Shown here: positions 12,701 to 28,581 of the stretch, in pieces
How positions within the stretch are numbered: the first letter of the stretch is position 1
Layout of the letters: every line of letters starts with the position of its first letter
Assembly (NCBI GenBank): GCA_963718045.1
Contig: OY970350.1
Location: 120,001-152,000 of the forward strand
Direction: 5' to 3'
Length of the DNA: 32,000 nucleotides
Source of the DNA: Candidatus Saccharimonadota bacterium
GTDB lineage: Bacteria; Patescibacteriota; Saccharimonadia; Saccharimonadales; UBA4665
The notes under the pieces: model-generated
What the model saw: only the letters and a program-made list of their open reading frames with translations
Databases searched by the model: none
Told to the model about the DNA's origin: nothing
Made by a program: the position numbers and the translations under genes

Positions 12701-13159
12701 GCCGGTGATTCAAGTTGTTCTAGTGCTAATGTCGGGACAATGACTAGTGGCTATAATGATACAGATTCTACACCTCAATCATATTACCAGTGGTCAACTG
12801 TTCAAAGCTCGGCACGATGTTACGATGTTGTTGTTCAAATACCTATACCTAGCGACTGGTCTTCTTGGACTGGTACACCAACCATTTATGCATCTGCGGG
12901 TACGGGTGGCAGTATTGCCATAGCTGCCATAGCATCAAACGGTACCGAGGAATCAAACTACGGTACCATGTCGGCTGGTGTTGCAGCTTACCATAGCGAG
13001 ACAACAACTGGCTCTCTGGCGACTGTAACCCTACAAGGACTAACCAGCGCTAGCGATTCTGCAAATGGCGTACTCACTCTAAAAATTAGGATGTCCGCAA
13101 CCAGTAGCGGTAATACAGAAATAGGTACAATTATCATTCCGTATACATCGGCCTATTAA
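3785..13159 (+). CDS. Giant (3,124 aa) N-terminally anchored surface protein: long G/S/T/N-rich repetitive stalk, FN3-like modules, LVIVD-repeat beta-propeller, C-terminal domain of unknown function
   Basis: Single uninterrupted 9,375-nt ORF. It has one hydrophobic segment at aa ~49-72 (nt ~3929-4000). More than 2,000 aa are low-complexity strand-like repeats (e.g. GNTSLTGTLSVQGAVTLGS). FN3-like stretches occur at nt ~10230-10500 (..YYYEITAVD..AYKIYR) and ~11790-12000 (..YNYAVAAIN..GYNIYR). No SD is seen before the ATG. Confidence 0.9.
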   Translation: MKPEDNSLESGSEASQYNSSLEGGYQTSNAPNIPIKSPKVSISLFKFNKLAILITVSTLLFIGLLGGGAFIYDKTHSKASSLNSLEASGTYKNGSTLAVNQAQQADLLTLGQVNQLSVNGQLTVNKTLVLTPSTTPTSPIAGEIYFDSTTNKPYVYNGSQFVSLQIPAQYVANVGGITGNIVLGNGLTINGNTVNVSNSLLQSISSAASSTSVVSSLQGATGNVTLSSGSGISINGTTVSNTGVLNLTSLNGSIVITNSGSGSYNLALSGGGGVILGPNAAQIDNSNNPSIYINKTNNGNLLELQNNGVDQFVVNQSGNLGINGSFTQNGTGTFSTGSGAVSLNGNTTITGGNSLTVSSGATTLRGTLGVTGVSTLGSLGVSSFSDSGAASVTGNTSLTGTLSVQGAVTLGSNSPATQGSLIFDNGTNNNVISIVPSVPTGSGDVSVEFPALTGGSSDYFCVTGPDANCGTSATTVTTSSSGTSGDIAEFTGANQIANSPITDNGSNALTIQSGYTLNVGTLASVGDLNITPSGKVNINDTAQEVEIQGNASSYFSVSANGKTNKLAFTSPTSAQPTNYTITVPDESGTICLDNDAANCGFATSGSGVTDVNGYTGVICIQDANDNGSCSGNNVTINNATSSALGIASFSSTDFNVSSGAVTTVQNISTSGDVQFDGLSLGSGYNCTAPETGSLCLSTGGTVYTSNIVNPSSTAPLQVTSANSIFQFDQEGTTFEFPTGYGNTTHDICVSGVSCATGTGAAVILQPSSAQADDGSIAGIFINDINSNCTLGTNCKDLVDLQNGGSDVFTVDQYGNAQFDQTLYANTIQPISGAGGITVGTSGTSQTFTLQGNSGSEIEITNPNGGVSYIGIENPSGGTASSQSVYYALDDTQAPSSGTNGGNAAANPIFICTSANSYCTASSGITGTGTTGDLPLFNGAHSLANSILSQSSSNIAIAGSSSTSSLTIGNISSTAGQLVFNNGINSNSITFTQPASQPSSAINIGLPSVAGTVAVKGTGPISVDNTGTISCSDCAVTGSGGSGANVVTTLNGLDNAVSITDSLNNAFSTSGQNVQIANASTSNLGLVKINNDGNLTVSSGVVDTAQNIQTSSSPQFASVYLGSAGPSGNDGQLVFYDGSTGYKLTLNQLTLTNNQTIHIPNNSGTLIVAVGSSNNLTLNNGVVDTANAVNFPTSVTTAELLSGSSSLQIGSTSSVQPFTLNGTAGTSGSYSSLDLYSGTYNTKIDFAVPATGNNVYTFPDAGGISATVCLQNTGSSYNSCTYGSGLNGIGSSNQVAYFSGTGTLSSATNFYDNGSTVGLGGVSSGFGTHTQLTVNTNATAVNSAVTQLNSGTSNPTYIPLVVEGASSQTADLLDIDSNAGTPLAGFNSTGNLYFSGSSNNTITGASNENLTLQSQGAGQLLLNSAGSSLALQVGGTTEATVSSAGNFNLLNGSYQLGGSTTLSSAALTFTASTDSITGPSGSSITLDTTGSGILYLGNTNAPNIYLGNGNSTTTVAGQLSQSYSSPSASTADTIGFTNSNSAAGVAIQGISLTPANTTPSSGTNTLNVLNFVAGSGTNATAITNGVNFASSTGYSNFINAPNFVVGSNGVITLGTVGTTEGELTLNSSHSGGSFSIEPSVNQAKSTILYLPTDSSSTDTVCLVSDCTGAGAGSGDSSYIYNTYSSQQSPGNIDIESAVGYVAASIQGASGQDIMDLYSNGGTLVAHFDSSGNLSAGTINGATITSTAFDGATLSGGSLSGSSLSATQLLFSGVTGTVTTNSGDNLTIDTGGGTSTLNLGNAYATTIQIGNTTLSSGTQTINIGNNNTSGGTTNVNIGNGSTALGTVAIQGGNITLTTVGSGTTTISNIYNNTGTGTALKDNASDIQSGSSGSSTVNADTISLTGNATSGETINLNGINFANVSAIANNTFNGLYFGTGYNNAIQGVGSLNITGAGASTWDIGANTLSLQTLSGGAITTGTGLFTLGGNVALSAAAPSIYSSTTNSGLTLQANGTGALTLNSSGTTGTIGAIQIGNASTASVTQSINIGNNAGASSVSTVTVGSVLGASALTLQAGTGNLALTTGSTGGSNITLTTDYASSKIIAKSTINSITAFQIQGSSSTVLTADTTNSRLGVDNSYTQISTPASAPTVNGPYAGGSLTYPNTYYYEITAVDSMGGETTPSSQGASGTQTSSANRTYTITWSAVSGASAYKIYRCYGTSGCTEVYIASTSTTSYTDNGVTAGTAIPPTTNTAYVSTNSSNNNGQVTIGGNGTPTGQLYVSGTVPSTLTGATGYNISNPISTYVSGHYAYTISNGNSELVIDDISNPASPTYISEIGTNISGGRYVYVSGHYAYVVCGGTTGELIIFDISNPFSPAYVSETTTNLNTPNDIYVQGNYAYVTSGTNGTNSDLVIFNISNAFNPAYVSEISTNLNTPKTVYIQGNYAYITSYGSGYLVIDNISNPANPTYVGETNSNLDGPWGLFVSGSYAYIGEATLGYLVIDNISNPANPTYITKTSTNINYPVSVYVQGRYAYIANNEGNSMSIDDISNPYNPISVGLTVSNLSYPSGVFISGRYAYVDSSNNNSLVIYDLGGTYDQQLQAGGAELGTLQVDGNSIMSGDASVQGGLAVGSNAQIQGGLSVAGSSTLGSLSLSGLATPAAPTETVTCSGTCATSYNYAVAAINVSGVTAASASTSTGATANASLNTTTEYNRTGWTAVTGATGYNIYRTAGGAAQGLIGTVPASSITAPTPTSGSETGATLTLNYSIPPPFVIGQAITLAGFTMNTGSVNGTWPILSVTSSAITINILSGVTSTISTMGTATGILGFYDTAQTAGTSAPTTTTAGSLTVNGPGLFENASNSTTAFQVQNASGYTLLGVDTTSADNDVIIGQSSNLTGNLIFANASNSYTFSLTASTAASGNISLILPSVAPSAGQCLTATSSTQLAFAGCGTSHAKQITLAAEYAGAVLDSAGDSSCSSANVGTMTSGYNDTDSTPQSYYQWSTVQSSARCYDVVVQIPIPSDWSSWTGTPTIYASAGTGGSIAIAAIASNGTEESNYGTMSAGVAAYHSETTTGSLATVTLQGLTSASDSANGVLTLKIRMSATSSGNTEIGTIIIPYTSAY
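10660..11565 (+). repeat. Seven LVIVD-type repeats (predicted 7-bladed beta-propeller) inside the giant CDS
   Basis: The motif YAY(V/I)..(n)..L(V/I)I(D/F)(D/N)ISNP..P.Y(V/I)(S/G)E recurs seven times by my count. Two units share a near-identical ~47-nt DNA block (about 11146-11192 and 11274-11320). Confidence 0.75.
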
Positions 13160-13235: not shown

Positions 13236-16200
13236 ATGTCTAAAAAGTCGGCAACATTAAATCAAAAGGATAAAGCAAATGGAGATGTAACTACTAGCGA
13301 AATAGCAGCTAGATTAGTTCCATCTCGTAAATATGCCCAACTGACAACCAAAACGAAGTTTATTAATAAATTCGTTCAGACTAAGAGAAAAGTAACCAAA
13401 ATTGGTAATTCTAAATATCTATTAGCCACAAGAAGGGAACTTAGAAAAACAATTAAACAAATAACCTGTAGTCCGGTGACTATAAAATTTGTATGTATAT
13501 ATAAAGGACTAACTAAAACAGTTATCTATCGGACTGATTTTATTACAAAACCAATTAAGAAAAAGCTCCAGCCACCAATTAGTCTATTTATCCGTCGGTT
13601 TAACAAAGTAGTTGACCGGCTTGGCCGAAAACGCGTTAAGTGGGTAAGCTACGGATTATTTAGCACCCTAGTGGTTGTAGCTATAGCAGTTGGTTCCATA
13701 GCCTATATCCATAACTTGATTAATTCCAGCTATAATCTGCCGGTTAACGAACAAGCTTTGATCGGATCCCCTGACACTGCCTTAATGAAATCCCAATTAA
13801 CCTATAACTCTAAAACTAAAACATACTACCTAGACAAATCGGGCATAGACAAGAGTTCCAGTTCTACTCCCGGAGTCCCATCTGGAGATAACAGTATTAG
13901 CATCGGATCTAAATCTAATTCAGCCTTTAGTCTAGTAATACCTACTAACATCCATCAAGGCTTTACAGCTTATGACAATACCTACGGACTATCCTTCACC
14001 CTAACTCCTGAGTTTGACGCTATGAACGCCAAGATGGTAGACGGTCATCTAGTCTATCCAATGGGACTAAATTCAACTAAAGACGTCTACACCATTAAGG
14101 CTAATGGTCTCCAAGAAAACATAGTCTATAACTCTGCGCCAGCGGGAACAGTCAAACTAGCCTATAAACTGGAATTGCCCAGTACCCTCCAAGCTAAAAT
14201 GATGCCAGGCGGTAACATAGGTATTTATTCAGCCAGTCCATATTTATTCGGTAACATCAGCTACGGCTCAGCTAAAGACCAAGCCCTGGTAGCTAAAGCC
14301 AGACTTAACGCCGCTAAAACTAACCTGGTCTTTGTCTTACCAGCTCCGGAAATAACCGACAACGACGGAATGGCTCCAACTAACGTTCAACAACAAACTA
14401 AATTCAGTCTTAAAGGGGACATCTTAACCTTAACTGCCAGCGATTTAGGCGGTATCCATGGCCCGATCTCCATCGACCCGAGTGTTATTGATGCCAGTGC
14501 CAGTTCTTTTGGCCAGGGTAATAACGAAAGTGATATATCATTTGCCAATTCCAGCATATCTGAAGCCGGACTTAGCGGCGGCGGTCTAGCTGGCAACACC
14601 AATAGCTGTGGGGCATCTTGGTGTGCCTCGAACGGTACTGCCGGCACGGGCGCCAACCTGCCGGCTGCTACCTACGAAGCCACCGCTGTCGCCTACAATG
14701 GCTACGTCTATCAGATAGGGGGGTATGCTGGCAGTCCCACCGCCGTAGTGGACTACGCGGCACTCACCAGCAGTGGTGCGCTGGCCGCACCGGGTTCGGC
14801 TGCCTGTACCGCTGGCGGCGGTTCTATTGCCGGTGACTGGTGTGCCTCGAACGGTACTGCCGGCACGGGCGCCAACCTGCCGGCTGTCACCTCCCAACCC
14901 ACCGCTGTCGCCTACAACGGCTACGTCTATCAGATAGGGGGGTGTTCTACTGCTTGCCCCACCGCCGTAGTGGACTATGCGGCTATCACCAGCAGCGGGG
15001 CGCTGGCCGCACCGGCTTCGGCTGCCTGTACCGCTGGCGGCGGTTCTATTGCCGGTGACTGGTGTGCCTCGAACGGTACTGCCGGCACGGGCGCCAACCT
15101 GCCGGCTGCCACCGACTACGCCACCGCTGTCGCCTACAATGGCTACGTCTACCAGATAGGGGGGTATACTACCGCTGCCACCGCCGTAGTGGACTACGCG
15201 GCTATCACCAGCAGTGGTGCGCTGGCCGCACCGGGTTCGGCTGCCTGTACCGCTGGCGGCGGTTCTATTGCCGGTGACTGGTGTGCCTCGAACGGTACTG
15301 CCGGCACGGGCGCCAACCTGCCGGCTGCTACCTACGAAGCCACCGCTGTCGCCTACAATGGCTACGTCTATCAGATAGGGGGGTGTTCTACTGCTTGCCC
15401 CACCGCCGTAGTGGACTACGCGGCTATCACCAGCAGTGGTGCTCTGGCCGCTCCCGGCAGTTGTGCTGGTACTATCACCGGCTATTGGTGTGCCTCAACT
15501 TCTACGGCTAACGGCAGCCTGCCGGCTGCTACCTACGTCGCTACCGCTGTCGCCTACAATGGCTACGTCTATCAGATAGGGGGGATGGCTGGCGGTGCCA
15601 CCGCCGCAGTGTACTACGCCCCGATATACAATGGTGGCAATATTGGCCCCTGGTCATCCACCACTAGCCTACCGGCTGCTACCTACTACGCTACCGCTGT
15701 CGCCTACAATGGCTACGTCTATCAGATAGGGGGGTATACTACCGCTGCCACCGCCGTAGTGGACTACGCGGCTATCAGCAGTCCAGGAGATGTTGCTCCT
15801 TGGACAGCCTCAACTTCTACGGCTAACGGCAGCCTGCCGGCTGCTACCTACGAAGCCACCGCTGTCGCCTACAATGGCTACGTCTATCAGATAGGGGGGT
15901 ATACTACCGCTGCCACCGCCGTAGTGGACTACGCGGCTATCACCAGCAGTGGTGCGCTGGCCGCTCCCGGCAGTTGTGCTGGTACTATCACCGGCTATTG
16001 GTGTGCCTCAACTTCTACGTCTAACGGCAGCCTGCCGGCTGCTACCTACGGCGCCGCCGCTGTTGCCTACAACGGCTATGTCTACCAGATAGGGGGGTAT
16101 GCTGGCAGTGTCACCGCTGTAGTGGACTACGCGGCTATCACTAGCAGTGGGGCGCTGGCCGCTCCCGGCAGTTGTGCTGGTACTATCACCGGCTATTGGT

Positions 16201-18518
16201 GTGCCTCAACTTCTACGTCTAACGGCAGCCTGCCGGCTGCTACCTACGGCGCCGCCGCTGTTGCCTACAACGGCTATGTCTATCAGATAGGGGGGTATAC
16301 TACCGCTGCCACCGCCGTAGTGGACTACGCGGCTATCACCAGCAGTGGTGCGCTGGCCGCTCCCGGCAGTTGTGCTGGTACTATCACCGGCTATTGGTGT
16401 GCCTCAACTTCTACGTCTAACGGCAGCCTGCCGGCTGCTACCTACTACGCTACCGCTGTCGCCTACAATGGCTATGTCTACCAGATAGGGGGGTATGCTG
16501 GCAGTGTCACCGCTGTAGTGGACTACGCGGCTATCACTAGCAGCGGGGCGCTGGCCGCACCGGCTTCGGCTGCCTGTACCGCTGGCGGCGGTTCTATTGC
16601 CGGTGACTGGTGTGCCTCGAACGGTACTGCCGGCACGGGCGCCAGCCTGCCGGCTGCTACCTACTACGCCACCGCTGTCGCCTACAATGGCTACGTCTAT
16701 CAGATAGGGGGGTATGCTGGCGGTGCCACCGCTGTAGTGGACTACGCGGCTATCACCAGCAGTGGGGCGCTGGCTGCTCCCGGCAGTTGTGCTGGTACTA
16801 TCACCGGCTATTGGTGTGCCTCAACTTCTACGGCTAACGGCAGCCTGCCGGCTGCTACCTACGTCGCTACCGCTGTTGCCTACAACGGCTATGTCTATCA
16901 GATAGGGGGGTATGCTGGCAGTCCCACCGCCGTAGTGGACTACGCGGCTATCAACAACGGCGGGCCGGCGACGTTGAGTGCTTGGGCTGCCACCGGCAGT
17001 CTGCCGGCTGCTACCTACCAAGCCACCGCTGTCGCCTACAACGGCTATGTCTATCAGATAGGGGGGTATGCTGGCAGTGTCACCGCTGTAGTGGACTACG
17101 CGGCTATCACTAGCACTGGGGCGCTGGCCGCTCCCGGCAGTTGTGCTGGTACTATCACCGGCTATTGGTGTGCCTCAACTTCTACGTCTAACGGCAGCCT
17201 GCCGGCTGCTACCTACTACGCTACCGCTGTCGCCTACAATGGCTATGTCTATCAGATAGGGGGGTGTTCTACTGCTTGCCCCACCGCCGTAGTGGACTAT
17301 GCGGCTATCACCAGCAGCGGGGCGCTGGCCGCACCGGCTTCGGCTGCCTGTACCGCTGGCGGCGGTTCTATTGCCGGTGACTGGTGTGCCTCGAACGGTA
17401 CTGCCGGCACGGGCGCCAACCTGCCGGCTGTTACCTACGGCGCTACCGCTGTCGCCTACAATGGCTATGTCTATCAGATAGGGGGGTATGCTGGCATTGT
17501 CACCGCCGTAGTGGACTACGCGGCTATCACCAGCAGCGGGGCGCTGGCTGCTCCCGGCAGTTGTGCTGGTACTATCACCGGCTATTGGTGTGCCTCAACT
17601 TCTACGTCTAACGGCAGCCTACCGGCCGCTACCTACCTCGCTACCGCTGTCGCCTACAACGGCTACGTCTATCAGATAGGGGGGTGTTCTACTGCTTGCC
17701 CCACCGCCGTAGTGGACTATGCGGCTATCAATTCCAGCACCGGTGCTGTCGGTACCTGGACTGCCACTGGCAGCCTGCCGGCTGCTACCTACTACGCTAC
17801 CGCTGTCGCCTACAATGGCTATGTCTATCAGATAGGGGGGTGTTCTACTGCTTGCCCCACCGCCGCAGTGTACTACGCCCCGATATACAATGGTGGCAAT
17901 ATTGGCCCCTGGTCATCCACCACTAGCCTGCCGGCTGCTACCTACCAAGCCACCGCTGTCGCCTACAACGGCTATGTCTATCAGATAGGGGGGTATACTA
18001 CCGCTGCCACCGCCGTAGTGGACTACGCCGGATTGCAATCCATGCCCCGAATTGGCTTTTACTCACAGTTAATCGACATGTCCGGCTCATCAACCGAAGA
18101 TCCAGCCGCCGATTATATACTTGCCAATGGCTCCCAAACAGGGGATCCTGGCATAGGCGGTCTTAGCGGCCCAGGTACTGGGGGTATATCTATAAATTAC
18201 CAATTTGCCTCTAATGCTTGCCCGACCTTTAATAGCTCAACTGCGCTAACTACTAGCGCGCTAGTACTCGGTACTCCTTACCCCATGACTTCTTCTTCCA
18301 ATGGCTGCAGCAGTTCTTCAGATACTAATTTTGGCCGTTGGGTTTGGGTTACTGTCAAACTCGATGATTCCCAAACTGCGACATTCCCGGACTCTAGCGG
18401 TAACCATGCTACAATAACGGGATTCACGTTGTATTATCACCCGGCGACTAATGGAAGACTGCGTGGCGGAGCCACTTTTAGCAATGGTTCTTTACAAACG
18501 CTTGATGCACCACCTTGA
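13236..18518 (+). CDS. Giant (1,760 aa) membrane-anchored surface protein with 18 Kelch-like tandem repeats
   Basis: Uninterrupted ORF 76 nt downstream of the previous giant gene. It has a Lys/Arg-rich ~135-aa N-terminus, one TM segment (VSYGLFSTLVVVAIAVGSIAYI), a ~300-aa unique ectodomain, the repeat array, and a ~250-aa unique C-terminal domain. Confidence 0.9.
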   Translation: MSKKSATLNQKDKANGDVTTSEIAARLVPSRKYAQLTTKTKFINKFVQTKRKVTKIGNSKYLLATRRELRKTIKQITCSPVTIKFVCIYKGLTKTVIYRTDFITKPIKKKLQPPISLFIRRFNKVVDRLGRKRVKWVSYGLFSTLVVVAIAVGSIAYIHNLINSSYNLPVNEQALIGSPDTALMKSQLTYNSKTKTYYLDKSGIDKSSSSTPGVPSGDNSISIGSKSNSAFSLVIPTNIHQGFTAYDNTYGLSFTLTPEFDAMNAKMVDGHLVYPMGLNSTKDVYTIKANGLQENIVYNSAPAGTVKLAYKLELPSTLQAKMMPGGNIGIYSASPYLFGNISYGSAKDQALVAKARLNAAKTNLVFVLPAPEITDNDGMAPTNVQQQTKFSLKGDILTLTASDLGGIHGPISIDPSVIDASASSFGQGNNESDISFANSSISEAGLSGGGLAGNTNSCGASWCASNGTAGTGANLPAATYEATAVAYNGYVYQIGGYAGSPTAVVDYAALTSSGALAAPGSAACTAGGGSIAGDWCASNGTAGTGANLPAVTSQPTAVAYNGYVYQIGGCSTACPTAVVDYAAITSSGALAAPASAACTAGGGSIAGDWCASNGTAGTGANLPAATDYATAVAYNGYVYQIGGYTTAATAVVDYAAITSSGALAAPGSAACTAGGGSIAGDWCASNGTAGTGANLPAATYEATAVAYNGYVYQIGGCSTACPTAVVDYAAITSSGALAAPGSCAGTITGYWCASTSTANGSLPAATYVATAVAYNGYVYQIGGMAGGATAAVYYAPIYNGGNIGPWSSTTSLPAATYYATAVAYNGYVYQIGGYTTAATAVVDYAAISSPGDVAPWTASTSTANGSLPAATYEATAVAYNGYVYQIGGYTTAATAVVDYAAITSSGALAAPGSCAGTITGYWCASTSTSNGSLPAATYGAAAVAYNGYVYQIGGYAGSVTAVVDYAAITSSGALAAPGSCAGTITGYWCASTSTSNGSLPAATYGAAAVAYNGYVYQIGGYTTAATAVVDYAAITSSGALAAPGSCAGTITGYWCASTSTSNGSLPAATYYATAVAYNGYVYQIGGYAGSVTAVVDYAAITSSGALAAPASAACTAGGGSIAGDWCASNGTAGTGASLPAATYYATAVAYNGYVYQIGGYAGGATAVVDYAAITSSGALAAPGSCAGTITGYWCASTSTANGSLPAATYVATAVAYNGYVYQIGGYAGSPTAVVDYAAINNGGPATLSAWAATGSLPAATYQATAVAYNGYVYQIGGYAGSVTAVVDYAAITSTGALAAPGSCAGTITGYWCASTSTSNGSLPAATYYATAVAYNGYVYQIGGCSTACPTAVVDYAAITSSGALAAPASAACTAGGGSIAGDWCASNGTAGTGANLPAVTYGATAVAYNGYVYQIGGYAGIVTAVVDYAAITSSGALAAPGSCAGTITGYWCASTSTSNGSLPAATYLATAVAYNGYVYQIGGCSTACPTAVVDYAAINSSTGAVGTWTATGSLPAATYYATAVAYNGYVYQIGGCSTACPTAAVYYAPIYNGGNIGPWSSTTSLPAATYQATAVAYNGYVYQIGGYTTAATAVVDYAGLQSMPRIGFYSQLIDMSGSSTEDPAADYILANGSQTGDPGIGGLSGPGTGGISINYQFASNACPTFNSSTALTTSALVLGTPYPMTSSSNGCSSSSDTNFGRWVWVTVKLDDSQTATFPDSSGNHATITGFTLYYHPATNGRLRGGATFSNGSLQTLDAPP
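14601..18029 (+). repeat. In-frame tandem array of 18 Kelch-like units (about 150-222 nt each), markedly GC-rich
   Basis: The core AVAYNGYVYQIGG occurs 18 times in the translation. DNA periods of 219-222 nt show in the regularly spaced alternative-frame ORFs (14840, 15062, 15281). Long stretches are near-identical between units. Confidence 0.95.
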
Positions 18519-18790: not shown

Positions 18791-18827
18791 TCAGTTCATT
18801 TTGAATTGTTTTAAACAAATTCTTTTT

Positions 18828-18874
<47 letters not shown>

Positions 18875-19689
18875 TACATGCAAGTCGAGCGGTAAGGCTC
18901 CTTCGGGAGTACACGAGCGGCGGACGGCTGAGTAACGCGTAGGAACCTACCCTAAAGTGAGGGATAAGCACCAGAAATGGTGTCTAATACCGCATATGCT
19001 CTTTGGAGTAAAGCTACGGCGCTTTGGGAAGGGCCTGCGTATGATTAGCTTGTTGGTGAGGTAAAAGCTCACCAAGGCGACGATCATTAGCTGGTCTGAG
19101 AGGATGATCAGCCAGACTGGGACTGAGAACGGCCCAGACTCCTACGGGAGGCAGCAGTAGGGAATCTTCCACAATGGGCGAAAGCCTGATGGAGCAACGC
19201 CGCGTGCAGGATGAAGGCCTTCGGGTCGTAAACTGCTTTTATATGTGAAGATTATGACAGTAGCATATGAATAAGGATCGGCTAACTCCGTGCCAGCAGC
19301 CGCGGTCATACGGAGGATCCAAGCGTTATCCGGAATTACTGGGCGTAAAGAGTTGCGTAGGTGGCATAGAAAGCGGGCAGTGAAATTGTATGGCTCAACC
19401 ATATAGACATTGTCTGAACTACTAAGCTAGAGGACGAGAGAGGTACCTGGAAGTCCCAGTGTAGGAGTGAAATCCGTAGATATTGGGAGGAACACCGATG
19501 GCGTAGGCAGGGTACTGGCTTGTTTCTGACACTAAGGCACGAAAGCTAGAGCAGGGACCCGGATTAGATACCCGGTTACTTCTAGCTGTAAACTATGGAT
19601 GCTAGCCGTTATCGGTATCGACCCCGGTAGTAGCAAAGCTAACGCGTTAAGCATCCCGCCTGTGGAGTACGGTCGCAAGACTAAAACAT

Positions 19690-19725
<36 letters not shown>

Positions 19726-19830
19726 GTGTTGTTTAATTCGAAAGTAAGCGAAGAACCTTACCCAGGCTTGACTTCCTGCGAATTTCTCCGAAAGGAGAGA
19801 GTGCTTTTATTAGAGCGCAGTGACAGGTGG

Positions 19831-19877
<47 letters not shown>

Positions 19878-20161
19878 TCAACGAGCGCAACCCTTATGTT
19901 TAGTTGAATTTTTCTAAACAGACTGCCCTGGTAACAGGGAGGAAGGAGGGGATGATGTCAGGTCCGTATCTCCCTTACGTCTGGGGCCACAGACACGCTA
20001 CAATGGCCGATACAAAGGGCAGCCAAGTCGCGAGACGGAGCTAATCCCATCAAAATCGGTCTCAGTTCGGATAGTAGGCTGAAACTCGCCTGCTTGAAGC
20101 TGGAATCGCTAGTAACGGTAAGTCAGCATATTACCGTGAATACGTTCCCGGGTCTTGTACA

Positions 20162-20568
20162 AAATAAATGCGCCTGGCAGTGCATTGGACTAGATGGTGT
20201 AAATCCATCCTTAGTAGCTGCGAGCAGGACATCTTTGGCAACAAAATGTCTGAAGGGCTCTACATGCGAAGAATAGCCTTTACAGATTGATGACAACAAT
20301 CAAGTGGCTCTTTCGACTCTACTAACGTGTACGTAGGGGAAGAAAGCTAGATAAGCCGGTAAGGAATGTTTGAAATAGCCCAGTGTATAACCCAGGGAGA
20401 TCCTCATAACGAGTGTAATCAGTGTGGTTATGAGGAAGTCAGCTGAGTTCATAGTACCTTTATCTAAAGGGAAGGAACGAACTTTATGTCTAACAAAACA
20501 TAAAGACTCGCTGGATGCGTTAGACGCGCACGTCCAGTGGGGAGTACCCGAGATTACCGGAGTACAGT
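20162..20568 (+). other. 407-nt ORF-less insertion in 16S after E. coli position A1396; class unresolved
   Basis: The universal block CTTGTACA|CACCGCCCGTCA is interrupted. The junction is unambiguous. No group I core blocks are seen. Several perfect hairpins are present (20402-20410/20427-20435 and 20482-20489/20498-20505). Confidence 0.8.
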
Positions 20569-20655
20569 CACCGCCCGTCAAATCATGAAAGTCGCCAATA
20601 CCCGACGTGTAAGCTTTGTCTTGCCCTAAGGTAGGGGAGATGATTGGGATTAAGT

Positions 20656-21469
20656 TTAACGGCTTCTTATGCGAGTAATTGCATATGCCTATCCAACTAT
20701 ATCGGTGAACTCCTATTGCATCTCAAGCTATAATGCGTAGTAGATATGCAAGGACAATACCGAGGGAAGTTGGGCTAGAAACTAAAATGGCACACACAAG
20801 AGCAGCTAATTACCTGAAAACTATACAACTACTAGCTTTTGAGAAGGAAGTAGCTACAGCATGTTTAATAGGTGATGGCACGCTCGTAAAGTCTGGCAAA
20901 CAATATCGACTTAGGATTAGTCATACTATTCGTCACAGTGACTATGTACGCTGGAAGTATCATTTACTTCAGCGTATATGCGTTACCGCTCCACAGTATG
21001 TCTCAATGACTTCGTCGCTTCGATTTGGTACAGTAGGTCATCCAGATTTGTCAGAGATGCGACATCAGTGGTATGAAAACGGAGTAAAACATATTCCATC
21101 AAGTTTTCAATTAACGCCATTGATGATTGCAGTCTGGTTTATGGATGATGGCTGCAAACATAGCAAGACAGTAGATTTCTCAGTACATTGCTTTTCCGTA
21201 AAGAGCATTAATATCCTACAGAGAGCTTTGTCAGAATTCGATATTGCTACAACCATTAACTTCGACGGAAAAGGAAGTAGGTTATATGTCAGACAAAATA
21301 GCTATTTTAAGTTCAAAGAACTTGTTAAACCATACATACAACCATGTATGGCATACAAGTTGCCCTAACCCCGTAGAGGCCATACGTTGGCTCCATCGAA
21401 AGGTGGATGAAGATATGGTCCGACACCCTTAGTAATAAGGGGTCTTAGAGAATAAGACGCAACAGTAAG
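20656..21469 (+). mobile_element. Group I-like intron in 16S after U1495, carrying a homing-endonuclease ORF (family 2)
   Basis: It interrupts GATTAAGT|CGTAACAAGG. The 5' exon ends in U and the insert ends in G. It shares the blocks AATACCG.GGGAAGT (20753-20771) and AAGATATGGTCC (21410-21421) with 23S introns D and E. Confidence 0.8.
20733..21368 (+). CDS. LAGLIDADG homing endonuclease, two-motif type (intron-encoded)
   Basis: Motifs TACLIGDGTL and IAVWFMDDGCK. The ORF lies wholly inside the 16S intron. The true start may be the ATG at 20787, downstream of an intron core block. Confidence 0.85.
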   Translation: MRSRYARTIPREVGLETKMAHTRAANYLKTIQLLAFEKEVATACLIGDGTLVKSGKQYRLRISHTIRHSDYVRWKYHLLQRICVTAPQYVSMTSSLRFGTVGHPDLSEMRHQWYENGVKHIPSSFQLTPLMIAVWFMDDGCKHSKTVDFSVHCFSVKSINILQRALSEFDIATTINFDGKGSRLYVRQNSYFKFKELVKPYIQPCMAYKLP

Positions 21470-21686
21470 CGTAACAAGGTATCCGTACGGGAACGTGCGG
21501 ATGGATTACCTCCTTTCTAGGGAGTAAAACTAGCAATCAGTTGAGCAATCTCTGATCAGCTAGGTCGATCTCGATAAGTTGTTTATTTCAGTACTGACAA
21601 CTTATATAGCTAAGATTTATCTTAGACGAGACATCAGTTCTGAGCTAACGAACAACGTTGAAATGCACTACCAAGTTGTTAAATAG

Positions 21687-21727: not shown

Positions 21728-21804
21728 TGGTGGGCGATGGAGGACTCGAACCACCGACCTCGTCATTATCAGTGACGCGCTCTAACCAGCTGAGCTAATC
21801 GCCC
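21728..21804 (-). tRNA. tRNA-Ile (anticodon GAU), CCA encoded
   Basis: The reverse complement folds as a cloverleaf: acceptor GGGCGAT/ATCGCCC, anticodon arm CGTCA-CTGATAA-TGACG, T-loop TTCGAGT (one U-U mismatch in the T stem). Confidence 0.93.
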
Positions 21805-21817
21805 TTATTTATTCCTA

Positions 21818-21894
21818 TGGTGGAGCATATCGGACTCGAACCGATGACCCCCTGCTTGCAAAGCAGGTGCTCTAGCCAACTGAGCTAATGCCCC
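21818..21894 (-). tRNA. tRNA-Ala (anticodon UGC), CCA encoded
   Basis: The reverse complement folds as a cloverleaf: acceptor GGGGCAT/ATGCTCC with the G3:U70 Ala identity pair, and anticodon arm CCTGC-TTTGCAA-GCAGG. Confidence 0.95.
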
Positions 21895-22180: not shown

Positions 22181-22999
22181 ATGCAAAGATACTCAGTATT
22201 GATTATCACTCTATTATCTTTGCCGTTGATGCTTATCGGTCTGGTAAGTACGAATGTTAGTGCCGCATCACCGAACATATCACGATCATATAATTCAACC
22301 ACTTCTATACCTACCGGCAGCATAGTCAGCCTTGTTAGTGACAAATCAGGGTATGTTGAGCCGTCCAATATTGCTAACGGCCAAAAAATGGCTGGAGTAG
22401 TAGTTAACAGCGACGAGTCTCTTCTGGCTGTTAATCCGTCAAGTGGTAAGGTTCAAGTTGCTACCGATGGTAATGTTAATACACTCGTCAGTACTGTTAA
22501 CGGTAATATAATAGCTGGTCAAGAGATAGCTGTGTCACCGTTTAACGGAATTGGTATGATGGCTAGCCCTGGTGACCGAGTTGTAGGTACTGCTCTGACT
22601 AATTTTAATAGTAAAACTTCAGGCGCAGCAGTTGAACAGGTGAGGGATAGTTCTGGCACTAGCCATAATATTACTGTTGGCTACATTAAACTGTCTATTA
22701 GCATTGGGGTGGACAATAATACGGGCAATTCTTCACTACAAGCTATTCAACAGTTCATAGAGAGTTTGACTGGTCACTACGTTTCTACTTTTAGGGTTAT
22801 AGCTGCCATGGGCATATCATTCTTAGCAATTATTTCCATAGTAACGTTGATCTACGCTGCAGTTTACAGCAGCATTATATCCATCGGCCGCAATCCTTTA
22901 GCTAAGTTTGCCGTATTAAGAACACTGACATCTGTAATAGGTATGATAGTGCTAATTGCCGGCGTAGGTTCTCTATCCTTATATCTTCTATTATATTAA
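22181..22999 (+). CDS. Hypothetical secreted/membrane protein (signal peptide, ~190-aa ectodomain, two C-terminal TM helices)
   Basis: N-terminus MQR + hydrophobic core + VSA|AS. The C-terminal hydrophobic segments are VIAAMGISFLAIISIVTLIYAAV and SVIGMIVLIAGVGSLSLYLLLY. I recognise no family. Confidence 0.8.
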   Translation: MQRYSVLIITLLSLPLMLIGLVSTNVSAASPNISRSYNSTTSIPTGSIVSLVSDKSGYVEPSNIANGQKMAGVVVNSDESLLAVNPSSGKVQVATDGNVNTLVSTVNGNIIAGQEIAVSPFNGIGMMASPGDRVVGTALTNFNSKTSGAAVEQVRDSSGTSHNITVGYIKLSISIGVDNNTGNSSLQAIQQFIESLTGHYVSTFRVIAAMGISFLAIISIVTLIYAAVYSSIISIGRNPLAKFAVLRTLTSVIGMIVLIAGVGSLSLYLLLY

Positions 23000-23426: not shown

Positions 23427-25382
23427 TGCACTTTTTGTAATACCTCGTTTGAGGTATTGCTAATCGTAAAAAGTTACTCAAGCGCGCACAAAGGATGCCT
23501 TGACGTAAGATACCGACGAAGGACGTGATGAGCTACGAAAAGCTTCGGGGAGCAGCTACATATGCTTTGATCCGAAGATATCCGAATGGGGAAACCTTGA
23601 TAGAGTTATGTCTATCAGCATCTGTCTGAATTCATAGGATGGAGAGCGGTAAGTGGGGGAACTGAAACATCTTAGTACCCCGAGGAATAGAAAATAATCA
23701 ATGATTCCGTAAGTAGTGGCGAGCGAACACGGATCAGCCCAAACCTTAATGACTTTCATCTGGCAATTTGCCAGTTGAATAAGTTGGTAGACGAATGTTT
23801 TTAAGGGGTTGTGACACATAAATTACCGATGTGAAGTTCTGGATCTTCCAGCATTTCATATTGGCTATCAGATGCTACCACCAATCTGAATAAGGTCAGA
23901 AATTTGCGAGGCGAGCAGAAGTGCCTGGAAAGGTACGCCATAGACAGTGACAGCCTGGTATGCCAAGTATCGCAAACCTTATTATTTATGTTTGTCGAGT
24001 AGGTCGGGACACGTGCAACCCTGACTGAAGCTAGGGGGTCCACCCCCTAAGGCTAAATATATCTTACGATCGATAGTGTACAAGTACCGTGAGGGAAAGG
24101 TTAAAAGAACCCCGGAAGGGGAGTGAAATAGACCCTGAAATTGTGTGCGTACAAGGAGTCGGAGCCAGTTTACTGGTGACGGCGTGCTTTTTGTAGAACG
24201 ATCCAGCGAGTTATTTGCTGCTGCAAGCTTAAGGCTTAATGCCGGAGGCGTAGTGAGAGCGAGCCTGAATAGGGCGTAAGTAGTAGTAAATAGACCCGAA
24301 ACCGAGTGACCTAACCATGGGCAGGCTGAAGCGTAGGTAAAACTGCGTGGAGGGCCGAACCGTAGCGAATTGCAAAACGCCCGGATGACCTGTGGTTAGA
24401 GGTGAAATGCCAATCGAACTCGGAGATAGCTGGTTCTCCTCGAAATAGCTTTAGGGCTAGCGTTGTACGGTAGCTGGTAGGGGTAGAGCAATGTTTCGGA
24501 ATGGGGACCGTAAGGTAACCCACCCTTGACAAACTACGAATACTATCAGTGGAACTACGGCAGTCAGAACGGCGGGGCTAAGCTCGTCGCTCGAAAGGGA
24601 AACAGCCCAGACCATCGTCTAAGGTCCCTAAATATATGCTCAGTGGGAAACGAGGTGAGATTTCTTAAACAACGAGGATGTTGGCTTAGAAGCAGCCATT
24701 CATTCAAAGAGTGCGTAACAGCTCACTCGTCAAGAGATCTTGCGCGGAAAATGTAACGGGGCTAAGCATATTACCGAAGACATGGATGTGTATAGCAATA
24801 TATGCGTGGTAGAGGAGCGTTCCTATAACAGTGAAGTTAGATTGTGAGATCTGATGGAGTTTTAGGAAGTGAGAATGCTGGAATGAGTAACGATAAGGCA
24901 GGTGAGAATCCTGCCCACCGAAAGAGCAAGGTTTCCTGGGCCACGATAATCGTCCCAGGGTTAGTCGGTCCTAAGCCGAGGCAATGAAGCGTAGGCGATG
25001 GACAACGGGTTAATATTCCCGTACTAGTGTAGTTTTGTTTTGTAGTGCGCGGCATGTTAGTAGAAGCGGATTTATGGTTATATCCGTCTAAGTAGGAGAA
25101 AAGCCTACTAATGAAAGGACCTTTTGGTTCGATTTCTATGATAGTGCTGACTAGAAAAGCTATTAAACGCATGGACTATACTATCCGTACCGCAAACCGA
25201 CACAGGTGCTCAGGTCGAGTAGACCAAGGTGTACGAGTGATTCTTCGTCAAGGAACTCGGCAAACAAGCGGCCGTAACTTCGGAATAAGGCCTGCCCTCT
25301 TTTAGAGGGCCACAGCTAAGGAACCCATGCAACTGTTTACCAAAAACACAGGTCTCTGCTAACACGAAAGTGGATGTATAGG

Positions 25383-25415
<33 letters not shown>

Positions 25416-25467
25416 TGAGAGGTTTACGCCTCGAACTGAAGCCCCGGTGAACGGCGGCCCTAACTAT

Positions 25468-25711
25468 TGACATACTAGTAGTTATAAAACTTGGCTATTT
25501 GCTGGAAACTCTCGCTAGGCTGATATGCCCAAACAGTAATCCGAAAGAATAAACTGAGTGGCTTAAAGAATATCAGATAGAGACAATCAGCAGGAAAGAC
25601 TCCTACGTTTCGTTATGAAATATGGAGAATCCTCAGAGACTATACGCCAGGCTCACTCATAGTGAGATGATATAGTCCGCTCTACATGGAGACATGTAGC
25701 TAACATTAAGG
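25468..25711 (+). mobile_element. Group I intron A at 23S L1917 (helix 69), 244 nt, no ORF (family 1)
   Basis: It interrupts CTAACTAT|AAGGGTCCT, with U before the insert and G as its last nt. Core blocks: TTGCTGGAAACT (P-like, 25499-25510), AATCAGCAGG (Q, 25585-25594), TCCTCAGAGACTATACG (R, 25630-25646) and ATGATATAGTCC (S, 25667-25678). Confidence 0.85.
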
Positions 25712-25725
25712 AAGGGTCCTAAGGT

Positions 25726-26538
25726 AGAGTGCTGCCTTAGTGGGATGAAAGATCCCCTCCTAGTTCACCTCAGCCATTGAGGTTTTAAGGAGAAAATTTG
25801 GCTATATGCTGGAAACTCCGTGCCTTTTTAAAAGGCTCTAGTATCTTGCACTACCTTGTGATAAGCTACTAGGTTTTACTGATTATGGTAAAGCCTATGT
25901 AAGTGGAAACGAGGTAACAAAGTGACAAGTGCGGACAATCAGCAGGAAAGACTAGTTAAAAACATAGGATGGATTGTAGGTTTTGTAGACGGCGAAGGCT
26001 GTTTTTCTATAGGGTTTGTTAAACAACCCAATAGAATAAATCGCATCGGCTATAAAACTGGCTATCAAGTCGTACATAGGTTTGTAGTGACGCAAGGTGT
26101 TAAAAGTATCTCCTGTATCGAGGACATGCAAAAGTTCTTCGGTGTAGGCAGGATATCTATAAACAAGCGTCATGACAATCATAAAGAAGATCTAGCCCAA
26201 TATATTGTTAATAGTCGAACAGATTTGCTCGAAACAATAATTCCATTTTTTGAGCAAAATAAACTTCAGACTTCAAAACAATATGACTTTGAGCAGTTCG
26301 CTAAATGCATACGAAAGATAGAAAATGGTGATCATTTAACTATAAATGGGCTGATCGAAATAATTGAGATCGCTCAAACTATGAATCACCGTAGATCCAG
26401 ACTTGCAATAATTAGAATCCTCAGAGACTATACGCCAAACCTTGTGAATAACAGGGAAGATATAGTCCCATCTGCATAGCGATATGCAGGTTCGGTAACA
26501 GCGAACGTCTACTTGACAAAAGTAGGTAAAGATGTTAG
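25726..26538 (+). mobile_element. Group I intron B at 23S L1931, 813 nt, with homing-endonuclease ORF (family 1)
   Basis: It interrupts AAGGT|AGCGAAATT, with U before and G last. Core blocks: P-like ATGCTGGAAACT (~25808), Q 25937-25946, R 26418-26434, S 26457-26468. Confidence 0.85.
25922..26479 (+). CDS. LAGLIDADG homing endonuclease, single-motif (homodimer-type), intron-encoded
   Basis: Motif IGWIVGFVDGEGCF plus a typical C-terminal region (IIPFFEQNKLQTSKQYDFEQF..HLT..GL..I..I...MN). GTG start with GAGGT 8 nt upstream. Confidence 0.85.
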   Translation: MTSADNQQERLVKNIGWIVGFVDGEGCFSIGFVKQPNRINRIGYKTGYQVVHRFVVTQGVKSISCIEDMQKFFGVGRISINKRHDNHKEDLAQYIVNSRTDLLETIIPFFEQNKLQTSKQYDFEQFAKCIRKIENGDHLTINGLIEIIEIAQTMNHRRSRLAIIRILRDYTPNLVNNREDIVPSA

Positions 26539-26558
26539 AGCGAAATTCCTTGTCAGGT

Positions 26559-26844
26559 AATAACTTGCCTGATTGTGTTGTAAGACACATGCACTTAGGA
26601 GGTAAACATTAAGCGACGTGCGTTAAGTGTGAAACTTGGCTATATGCTGGAAAATCTCTTAAATTCCAACGGGAAACCGGTTGGACTATGGAGACAATCA
26701 GCAGGGAAGGCCTAAGAGTAATCTTAGGAACCCTCAGAGACTACACGCCAAGCCCCATCTATATGGGTGAAGATATAGTCCGATCTCTGCGGTGACGTAG
26801 AGAGCACAAATAGCAGTGCTATAAAAACAAGCAAAAGTTAGATG
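26559..26844 (+). mobile_element. Group I intron C at 23S L1951, 286 nt, no ORF (family 1)
   Basis: It interrupts TGTCAGGT|AAGTTCTGACC, with U before and G last. Core blocks: P-like 26644-26655, Q 26696-26705, R 26732-26747, S 26770-26781. Confidence 0.85.
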
Positions 26845-27432
26845 AAGTTCTGACCCGCACGAATGGCGTAATGATATGGGTACTGTCTCGACGAAGAGCT
26901 CGGTGAAAGTGCATTGACGGTAAAGATGCCGTCTGTCCGCAGCAGGACGAAAAGACCCCGTGCAGCTTAACTATAGTTTGGCATTGAGCCGGGAGTATAC
27001 ATGTGTAGCATAGGTGGGAGACTTTGAAGCTTGGACGCTAGTCCGAGTGGAGTCTTCAGTGAAATACCACCCTTGTATGCTTCTTGTTCTTACTGGGGCC
27101 ACAATTTGTACATAATTTGTTTGTGTATAAATTCTGGCTCCAGGACCGTGTCTGATGGGTAGTTTAACTGGGGCGGTTGCCTCCTAAAGAGTATCGGAGG
27201 CGTTCAAAGGTTAGCTAGGTTCGGATGGAAATCGAATCGATAGTGTATACGCATAAGCTAGCTTGACTGTGAGGGCGACAACCCAAGCAGGGACGAAAGT
27301 CGGAGTAAGTTTTCCGCTGTCTGTACATAGTACAAGAGTGTGGTATCGGCAGCGCTTTCGGATAAAAGTTACGCCGGGGATAACAGGCTTATAGCGCCCA
27401 ATAGTTCACATAGACGGCGCTGTTTGGCACCT

Positions 27433-27723
27433 TAACAAATCGGGGTGCTACGGAAGTAATTCCGTACTAAAAATGTGGCTTATAACGGTGAATCCCGACT
27501 ACTTCAGTGTGATATTTAAGAAGTAAGGGTAATACCGTGGGAAGTCTAGGTTAGTTTAGCTAACTGATGACCCTGTAACGACTGAGTTGAAAAACAAGAT
27601 CTTGAGTTTATCAAGATAATACGCCACCTCCTATCAAATAAAACTAGAGAATGGTTGAGTACCTTAACTCTGGTGGTAGGAAGAAGATATAGTCTACGCC
27701 ATAAGTAATTATGGAATGAAGTA
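27433..27723 (+). mobile_element. Group I-like intron D at 23S L2500 (peptidyl-transferase centre), 291 nt, no ORF (family 2)
   Basis: It interrupts GTTTGGCACCT|CGATGTCGGCTC. It shares ATGTGGCT.ATAACGGTGAA, GGTAATACCGTGGGAAGTC (27528-27546), GACCC.GTAACGACT and AAGATATAGTCT (27684-27695) with intron E. The last intron nt appears to be A rather than G. Confidence 0.75.
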
Positions 27724-27798
27724 CGATGTCGGCTCATCTTATCCTGGGGCTGAAAACGGTCCCAAGGGTCCGGCTGTTCGCCGGTTAAAAAGGTACGT

Positions 27799-27832
<34 letters not shown>

Positions 27833-27880
27833 TTATATCCGCTGTGGACGTTAGGAAATTTGAGAGGATTCGCTTCTAGT

Positions 27881-28200
27881 AAGAGATTGCTACTTCGCAT
27901 TGAGAGATGTGATGACAATGTGGCTAATAACGGTGAAACCTTCGCATGGTTAGTTCGTAGAGTCGTATAAATGCTGGTCCATATTATATGATTTGATTGA
28001 TGAATTAATCCTCTGACAGGTAATACCGTGGGAAGTCGAATGCTAGATTTATTCTAGCTAGTGACCCCGTAACGACTTAGTGCATTTTATGCACGGACTT
28101 AGCAGCAAGATTAATAATTAGGCTAGGTAATACGCCGCTGCCCTACTTTTATAGAGGGTAAAGATATAGTCTGCGCCTTTAGAAATAAAGGAACAAAGTG
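27881..28200 (+). mobile_element. Group I-like intron E at 23S L2656 (sarcin-ricin loop), 320 nt, no ORF (family 2)
   Basis: It interrupts CTTCTAGT|ACGAGAGGACCG, with U before and G last. Family-2 blocks lie at 28019-28037 and 28161-28172. Confidence 0.8.
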
Positions 28201-28581
28201 ACGAGAGGACCGAAGTGAACGCACCGCTGGTGTACCAGTTGTTCTACCAAGGGCATTGCTGGGTAGCTATGTGCGGACCAGATAAGCGCTGAAAGCATAT
28301 TAAGCGCGAAACTGACCTCAAGATTAGATTTCCCTATGAGGACACTGAAAGACGATCAGTTTGATAGGCGCAAGGTGGAAGCACGGTAACGTGTGCAGCC
28401 AAAGCGTACTAACAGTCCCATTGACTTTTTACGACTAGAACATATGATGCTTTAGCAACATGTGTTCTAGGTAAAGTGTATTGACTGGTCATTTGTATTT
28501 GCCAATACGTTTGTTATAATTGCTTTCCGATCTTTGCTATTCTTGGACACCAAGAAATCTTTGAAAGATTCAAGGATTAAA

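Follow-up and report, generated by a model that had tools for sequence, protein, structure and literature searches.

The window analysed here is a 32,000-nucleotide (nt) stretch of contig OY970350.1 (positions 120,001 to 152,000, forward strand) from a Candidatus Saccharimonadota bacterium. Among its genes is a 23S ribosomal RNA (rRNA) gene with five insertions of more than 240 nt, which follow positions 1917, 1931, 1951, 2500 and 2656 when the Escherichia coli MG1655 rrlH gene is aligned globally to it with cheap gap extension. Positions in rRNA are given in E. coli (Ec) numbering throughout, and insertion sites are named accordingly (L1917, L1931 and so on); loci used for comparison carry an L with three digits. 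The first three insertions are group I introns set into 34 nt of mature 23S rRNA in helices 69-71, and the locus is an extreme case of a pattern known from bacteria of the Candidate Phyla Radiation (CPR). The gene and the parts of this cluster, including the one open reading frame (ORF) within it, are listed below, with P1 to P10 denoting the paired regions of the ribozymes.

23467-28433, forward strand: 23S rRNA gene, 4967 nt including the five insertions (RF02541, 2205 bits, model positions 1-2925; rrlH alignment)
25468-25711, forward strand: intron 1, after Ec U1917, 244 nt, without ORF and without P2
25712-25725, forward strand: micro-exon 1, 14 nt, AAGGGTCCTAAGGT, Ec1918-1931, from the 3′ strand of helix 69 onward; 13 of 14 nt as in E. 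coli
25726-26538, forward strand: intron 2, 813 nt, after Ec U1931; P2/P2.1 present, P5 long, P6 loop interrupted by an ORF
25922-26479, forward strand: LAGLIDADG_1 ORF of intron 2, 185 amino acids (aa) from a GTG start, reaching from the P5-P6 region through P7, P3′ and P8 into P9
26539-26558, forward strand: micro-exon 2, 20 nt, AGCGAAATTCCTTGTCAGGT, Ec1932-1951; 19 of 20 nt as in E. coli
26559-26844, forward strand: intron 3, after Ec U1951, 286 nt, without ORF, class A core

An initial annotation made from the letters alone had placed the three introns and the 14-nt and 20-nt micro-exons between L1917, L1931 and L1951, and the independent rrlH alignment reproduces all of these coordinates to the base. 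The rule that a U precedes each intron and a G closes it, also claimed at that stage, can be read directly from the sequence: every upstream exon ends in T, and introns 1, 2 and 3 are closed by G at 25711, 26538 and 26844. All six junctions are confirmed because intron-less alleles of relatives show the same junctions (L1917 in L131 and L132, L1931 in L141, L1951 in L029). The compensatory pair in helix 69 that had been noticed in the exons is real (C1910 and G1920 in the window, G1910-C1920 in E. coli), and in relatives this stem shows a second compensatory exchange, C1909G together with G1921C. Chance exon matches were ruled out, as the 14-mer and the 20-mer have one mismatch each, lie in order and each abut a complementary guide sequence. 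An assembly artefact was likewise ruled out by the identical arrangement in ENA and JGI assemblies of different samples (L126, L127, L134).

For comparison, GTDB was scanned for the P7-P3′...P7′ core pattern, which yielded at least 120 loci, spread over many phyla of bacteria and also found in DPANN archaea; four exon motifs were located in each locus to call site occupancy, and metagenome loci were used as well. We distinguish two core types, here named class A and class B, and the class A set comprises 66 introns. The nearest 23S gene among the matches listed is that of the Saccharimonadales locus L029, 88.7% identical, while L135 is 87.4% identical; the 23S exons of L138 are 99.2% identical to those of the window. 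The class A core pattern also occurs in DPANN contigs of Woesearchaeota, Nanoarchaeota and Pacearchaeota (L006, L008, L013, L015, L056, L070, L072, L118), consistent with the wide distribution of group I introns in archaea (PMC6125680).

Introns 1 and 3 lie well above the gathering threshold of 50 bits of the Rfam group I model RF00028, at 85.8 bits (E 1e-20) and 86.3 bits (E 7e-21), respectively. As P6 of intron 2 is split by a 469-nt ORF insert, only the 3′ half of this intron, beginning with P7, matches the model, at 27.6 bits. Its 5′ half has the same class A P3 and P4 blocks as introns 1 and 3, and the pairing of its P3 (TTTGGC with GCCAAA) spans the ORF; intron 3 has CTTGGC and GCCAAG here, a compensatory difference. 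Furthermore, the L1931 intron of L138 is an ORF-less counterpart of intron 2, 92% identical to it in the 5′ part and 83% in the 3′ part. It scores 85.7 bits, and all three L138 introns pass the model (79.1 bits at L1917 and 91.5 bits at L1951). The shared blocks, the P3 pairing across the ORF and the ORF-less L138 counterpart together mark intron 2 as a complete ribozyme. The RF00028 search proposed in the initial annotation thus supports introns 1 and 3 and leaves the ORF-split intron 2 below threshold, and its identification of three group I introns holds for intron 2 through the core blocks and the L138 counterpart.

Covariation within the class A set agrees with these structures. Each of the six P3 pairs is formed in 64-66 of the 66 introns, with compensatory double changes at five of the six, and these changes hold across ORF inserts, more than 150 nt being inserted in P6 in 34 of the 66. 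The fourth pair of P4 varies between TA and GC, and that of P7 between TA and CG.

The guide sequences that define the 5′ splice sites lie about 9-11 nt inside the introns and pair with the final 6-7 exon nucleotides, the splice site itself being formed by a U.G pair.

25478-25484, forward strand: guide of intron 1, GTAGTTA, pairing with exon TAACTAT (Ec1911-1917)
25730-25740, forward strand: P10 strand and guide of intron 2, GCCTTAG pairing with CTAAGGT of micro-exon 1 and TGCT with AGCG of micro-exon 2
26562-26573, forward strand: P10 strand and guide of intron 3, GCCTGA(T) pairing with (G)TCAGGT and AACTT with AAGTT of the downstream exon

The P10 strand lies directly upstream of the guide and forms 4 base pairs (bp) in intron 2 and 5 bp in intron 3. 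The intron 1 guide GTAGTTA is common to 22 of the 29 L1917 introns among the matches listed. At the other two sites, guide and exon change together from genome to genome: CTAAGGT with GCCTTAG, CTATGGT with GCCATAG and CTACGGT with GCCGTAG at L1931, and GTCAGGT with GCCTGA as against GTCGGGT with GCCCGA at L1951. This covariation is good evidence that the P1 helices are under selection; only recurrent classes were used, as the automated search for P1 partners was noisy with chance complementary runs. The L1931 introns of L039 and L117 pair the guide GCCTTAG with the exon CTATGGT, leaving a U-U mismatch in P1, while genomes with this exon otherwise carry the matching guide GCCATAG; these two introns may be recent arrivals that have yet to adapt to the exon of the host.

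The initial annotation raised possible interference between the closely spaced ribozymes; no exon nucleotide is used in P1 or P10 by two introns. Micro-exon 1 contributes nt 8-14 only, to P1 of intron 2; micro-exon 2 contributes nt 1-4 to P10 of intron 2 and nt 14-20 to P1 of intron 3. As the exon nucleotides of the introns do not overlap, each ribozyme could in principle fold and splice independently, and splicing would rejoin the two micro-exons and restore helices 69-71. The one visible risk is cross-pairing of guides: the 5′ exons of introns 2 and 3 both end in AGGU, which allows either guide 4 bp of pairing with the exon of the other intron.

The ORF of intron 2 has a single PF00961 domain (Pfam, 81.9 bits, E 7e-23) and is predicted identically in L126 and L127. 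Its relatives in PDB are I-PanMI (1.5e-34), I-OnuI and I-SmaMI. The product is a predicted LAGLIDADG homing endonuclease of the single-motif, homodimeric type, and activity has been demonstrated for a CPR homologue, the L1931 endonuclease I-ShaI (PMC11270868).

Occupancy of two of the three sites is common among the matches listed. All three are occupied in five kinds of locus, namely the window with the near-identical L126 and L127; L134; L138; L135/L137; and the Berkelbacteria locus L039 with the Patescibacteria locus L117 (the same contig as L139). The triple is thus a real arrangement that recurs in at least four lineages beyond that of the window. The position of the ORF varies among these loci: it lies in the L1931 intron only in the window, in the L1917 and L1951 introns in L039 and L117, and in the L1951 intron only in L135, while L138 has no ORF in any of the three and one in its L2500 intron. 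Such variation is in keeping with the usual cycle in which endonuclease genes are gained and lost. In L078 (CAWCDZ010000003.1, uncultured Gammaproteobacteria), the 20-nt segment Ec1932-1951 occurs twice on the reverse strand, at 7044-7064 and 7386-7406, 342 nt apart, the copies reading AGCGAAATTCCTTGTCGAGT and …GTCGGGT. Either an exon tract has been duplicated in or beside an intron here, or the locus may be a true triple with a variant micro-exon.

The kinship of introns 1 and 2 follows their insertion sites. The best BLAST partners of intron 1 are L1917 introns (L029, L115, L117, L086 and L093), and it is 95% identical to the L1917 introns of L138 and L134 and 88% to that of L029. The best partners of intron 2 are L1931 introns (L059, L064, L051 and L018), with ORF-length matches to L098 and L077, and its 5′ part (P1-P2) is 0.78-0.93 identical to the L1931 introns of L029, L135 and L134. 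As a global MAFFT alignment misaligned the 5′ half of intron 2, comparisons by part were made on an anchor-based partition at the core blocks. Every L1917 or L1931 intron among the matches listed is of class A, save five truncated or divergent ones that the anchors left unclassed. By these comparisons, intron 1 is assigned to a site-specific L1917 lineage and intron 2 to a site-specific L1931 lineage, both widespread; this same-site kinship agrees with the published finding that rRNA introns at such sites cluster by insertion site (Haugen et al., 2007, PMC1995217).

Intron 3 behaves differently. Nine of the 12 L1951 introns among the matches listed have a class B core (GGCTAATAACGGTGAA ... AATACCGTGGGAAGTC), as do the L1951 introns of L132 and L135, and the class A share at this site is if anything overstated by a sample picked by the class A pattern. 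Intron 3 lacks this usual core and carries the class A core of the L1917/L1931 type. It is 95% identical to the L1951 intron of L138 and 89% to that of L134. The part that sets it apart is its centre:

26638-26749, forward strand: centre of intron 3 (P3-P4-P5-P6-P7), with the P5 module ATTCCAACGGGAAACCGGTTGG, a hairpin with a GAAA cap

From P3 to P3′, this centre is 0.95 identical to the L1931 intron of L138, 0.92 to that of L135 and 0.87 to that of L039, and 0.59 to intron 1 of the window. The 5′ and 3′ parts of intron 3 are only 0.54-0.66 identical to the same three L1931 introns. The P5 module, a 22-mer, is rare and was found in 11 contigs in an exact search of the metagenome collection. 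It occurs in L1931 introns of L131, L132, L135/L137, L136, L138, L139 and the GTDB locus L039, and in L1951 introns of the window clade, L134, L138 and L141.

Locus L138 gives the clearest view of how such a centre could move. Its L1931 intron (290 nt, without ORF) and its L1951 intron (287 nt) have a stretch of 121 nt in common with at most two differences, which takes in the variable P5 and P6 hairpins, while the intron ends are about 60% alike. The L138 L1931 intron has ends like those of window intron 2 (0.92 and 0.83) and a centre of the intron 3 type. The simplest reading of this pattern is gene conversion between introns about 300 bp apart, with identical core blocks as crossover points; the breakpoints would fall at GGCTATATGCTGGAA and CTCAGAGACTAYACGCC, and the endonuclease gene and the long P5 would have been lost in the same step. 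In an older event, an L1931-type centre would have reached L1951 by a similar conversion or by a site switch of a whole intron.

Taken together, these comparisons suggest that the cluster consists of three separate and structurally complete group I introns, of which introns 1 and 2 represent the lineages of their sites and intron 3 has a centre derived from the L1931 lineage by switch or conversion. We put the probability of this reading at roughly 0.78. Several points weigh against it. Intron 2 as a whole falls short of the RF00028 gathering score on account of its ORF, and inspection of the sequence found no evident P10 in intron 1. The P5 module also occurs in two L1917 introns, those of L133 and L140, and could be an older, mobile or ancestral module. 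For the ends of intron 3 no close relative was found outside its own clade, so that a whole-intron switch and a conversion of the centre only are inseparable. The GTDB sample of at least 120 loci was chosen by the class A pattern, and p-distances over the conserved core, with P5 poorly aligned, do not separate the site clades. Finally, that the introns splice, in what order and how efficiently, is a matter of inference.

The alternative that survives best holds that L1951 has an old class A lineage of its own, of independent standing, to which intron 3 belongs; the likeness of intron 3 to L1931 introns would then be due to an ancestral or convergent P4-P6 module and not to transfer between the sites. 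Class A introns do occur at L1951 in Peregrinibacteria-type genomes (L053, L098), the P5 module is present at all three sites, given the L1917 introns of L133 and L140, and the ends of intron 3 are unlike those of L1931 introns. However, the core of intron 3 is only 0.66 identical to the L1951 intron of L053, whose P5 differs, and its centre reaches 0.92 identity with the L1931 intron of L135 although the 23S exons of the two hosts are only 87% alike. Near-identity of the L138 pair over variable P5 and P6 hairpins, together with diverged ends, is moreover a signature of recombination. We therefore regard an old native lineage as unlikely.

Less probable again is the view based on the initial annotation, that a single element spread to adjacent sites of the gene, which would make all three introns recent paralogues. 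The three introns do have the same core class and the four blocks named there, TGCTGGAAA, AATCAGCAGG, CCTCAGAGACTA.ACG and GATATAGTCC; the centre of intron 3 does derive from an L1931-type intron, and L138 documents sequence exchange between neighbouring introns. The class A blocks are, however, found in all 66 introns of the class A set, and a generic core that is invariant across dozens of phyla says nothing about recent local copying. In a MAFFT alignment of the five window introns, introns 1-3 are only 0.55-0.66 identical to each other, and by p-distances of ORF-trimmed MAFFT cores, used for ranking only, they stand 7th to 43rd of 51 among each other's relatives. In comparison, intron 1 reaches 88% identity with the L1917 intron of L029, and the L1931 introns of L029, L134 and L135 match the ends of intron 2 at 78-93% identity. 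What stands of the earlier view is the presence of the blocks in all three introns and the L1931-like centre of intron 3 alone; the blocks are not evidence of local copying, and introns 1 and 2 are, by these measures, unlikely to be local copies.

That the insertions are unspliced, and either stay in the rRNA or are excised without ligation to give a fragmented 23S rRNA, has a precedent in the unspliced L1931 intron of Simkania (Everett et al., 1999, as cited in PMC1995217 and PMC11270868) and is very improbable here, since the intact cores, the U.G pair and terminal G of all three introns and the guide-exon covariation indicate selection for splicing, the bridge region of helices 69-71 could hardly accommodate three insertions with a total of 1.3 kb, loose pieces of 14 and 20 nt would be unlikely to come together in a ribosome, and CPR rRNA insertions are removed from transcripts according to earlier work as summarised in PMC11270868.

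The probable behaviour of the cluster in transmission can also be outlined. The 34 bp would accommodate a LAGLIDADG target of about 20-22 bp with L1931 at its centre, so the intron 2 enzyme could recognise an empty allele irrespective of its neighbours. With a triple donor, repair would meet only 14 and 20 bp of homology, followed by introns 1 and 3. As the micro-exons are shorter than useful recombination homology, all three introns would probably be copied together, which would let the ORF-less introns 1 and 3 hitch-hike. As regards a site switch, the 5′ exons CUAAGGU (L1931) and GUCAGGU (L1951) have AGGU in common, and reverse splicing is said to need 4-6 complementary bases (PMC3984707). 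As a wider proposal, which we advance tentatively and at slightly less than even odds, closely packed CPR 23S introns would not evolve as separate lineages tied to their sites but would swap P3-P7 centres by conversion through identical core blocks, an L1931-type ribozyme would have colonised L1951 in this way or by reverse splicing, and the cluster would move as one unit driven by any intron that retains an endonuclease gene.

The window holds two further group I or group I-like introns in the 23S gene and a group II-like intron in the 16S gene, all additional to the three noted initially.

27433-27723: fourth group I intron, after Ec U2500 (RF00028, 51.5 bits; class B core)
27881-28200: fifth group I-like intron, after Ec U2656 in the sarcin-ricin loop (RF00028, 45.3 bits, just below the gathering score)
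About 1.2 kb within the 16S rRNA gene: insertion with a group II D1-D4 match at 20400-20477 (42.8 bits) and a LAGLIDADG_2 ORF at 20733-21368

As aligned to E. coli, the L2500 intron ends in A and not G (…ATGAAGTA/CGATGTCGG, the slash marking the border), and it may be without the canonical terminal G. The L2656 intron has the borders CTAGT/AAGAGA…AAAGTG/ACGAGAGGACC, with U before it and G at its end, and is of class B; it is 57% identical to the L2500 intron, which makes these a second related pair within one gene. In the 16S gene, the Rfam match at 18824-20213 mis-delimits the gene (region 18824-21515): conserved sequence (…CCCGGGTCTTGTACA) stops near 20165, with the anti-Shine-Dalgarno end, GGATTACCTCCTT, at 21503-21515. 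The insertion between them looks like the CPR '16IS9' group II intron at position 1400, for which the CPR survey reports LAGLIDADG_1 (PMC11270868), in contrast to the LAGLIDADG_2 of the window.

The window also has a 5S gene and two transfer RNA (tRNA) genes. The tRNA genes, tRNA-Ile(GAT) and tRNA-Ala(TGC), lie between 16S and 23S on the opposite strand, and an ORF of 272 aa without a Pfam match stands between them and the 23S gene, so that the operon is rearranged; these features fall in 21728-21894 and 22181-22999. In L135 the two tRNA genes are on the rRNA strand. Directly 5′ of the 16S gene, after gyrB and gyrA, are two very large ORFs at 3785-13159 (3124 aa) and 13236-18518 (1760 aa).

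The cluster offers a natural test case of the folding and splicing of several ribozymes on substrates separated by 14 and 20 nt, within the functionally critical bridge region of helices 69-71. The L138 comparison adds bacterial, sequence-level evidence that a group I intron may change site or exchange its catalytic module with a neighbour, a step in intron spread that has so far rested mainly on circumstantial evidence from eukaryotic ribosomal DNA (rDNA). Such introns also break the rRNA-based detection and annotation of CPR bacteria, and the 16S gene of the window was mis-delimited by Rfam for the same reason.

The sites themselves are already catalogued. Tsurumaki et al. (2024, PMC11270868) report that CPR 23S insertions cluster at 1917, 1931 and 1952 (23IS6-8) and often encode LAGLIDADG_1, which matches the window in phylum-level group, in the three sites, in the group I type of the introns and in single-domain LAGLIDADG_1 ORFs. 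Two other features seen in the window also appear in their catalogue: a group II intron carrying a LAGLIDADG gene at position 1400 of the 16S, and an insertion in the 23S at 2657. It gives site frequencies, and the parts of it covered here hold nothing on three-site co-occupancy, micro-exons, intron class per site or exchange between neighbours. Neither our literature searches nor those parts of the survey turned up a description of the L1917+L1931+L1951 triple or of rRNA micro-exons.

The closest single-genome parallels come from Coxiella and a cyanobacterium. Coxiella burnetii, named in the initial annotation as occupied at L1917 and L1951, does carry Cbu.L1917 and Cbu.L1951 in its 23S gene, flanking a 34-bp exon (Haugen et al., 2007, Table 1, PMC1995217; also Raghavan et al., 2007, by its title as cited in PMC11270868). 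The two sites and the 34 nt between them are the same in the window, where the L1931 intron splits these 34 nt. The endonuclease gene is in the L1951 intron in Coxiella and in the L1931 intron in the window, and one of the two Coxiella introns is without the canonical terminal G, going by the title of Raghavan et al. (2007), whereas the three window introns all end in G. Synechococcus sp. C9 has 23S introns at L1917, L1931 and L2593 (Haugen et al., 2007, PMC1995217), and its co-occupancy of L1917 and L1931, shared with the window, implies the same 14-nt exon. The cyanobacterial ORF layout is also that of window intron 2, from the start of P6 through P7, P3 and P8 into P9. Synechococcus C9 differs in having no L1951 intron and endonuclease genes in all of its introns, and no cross-site exchange is reported for it (PMC1995217). 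For Acanthamoeba mitochondria "three introns/positions", out of four sites, are given (PMC1995217).

Reverse splicing has carried related group I introns ectopically to new sites in rDNA (Bhattacharya et al., 2005, PMC1299323; reviewed in PMC3984707). The fungal rDNA and phage cases resemble the window in that related introns sit at different sites of one rRNA gene and core blocks serve as recombination substrates. In the phage work, by Hall, Liu and Shub in 1989, different T4 introns reportedly recombined through shared core sequences. Those cases concern fungal nuclear rDNA and phage genes, as opposed to a bacterial 23S gene with sites 20 nt apart and a P3-P7 centre swapped between diverged ends. 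Set against these systems, what appears modestly novel here, by sequence comparison, is the exchange of a ribozyme centre between neighbouring sites.

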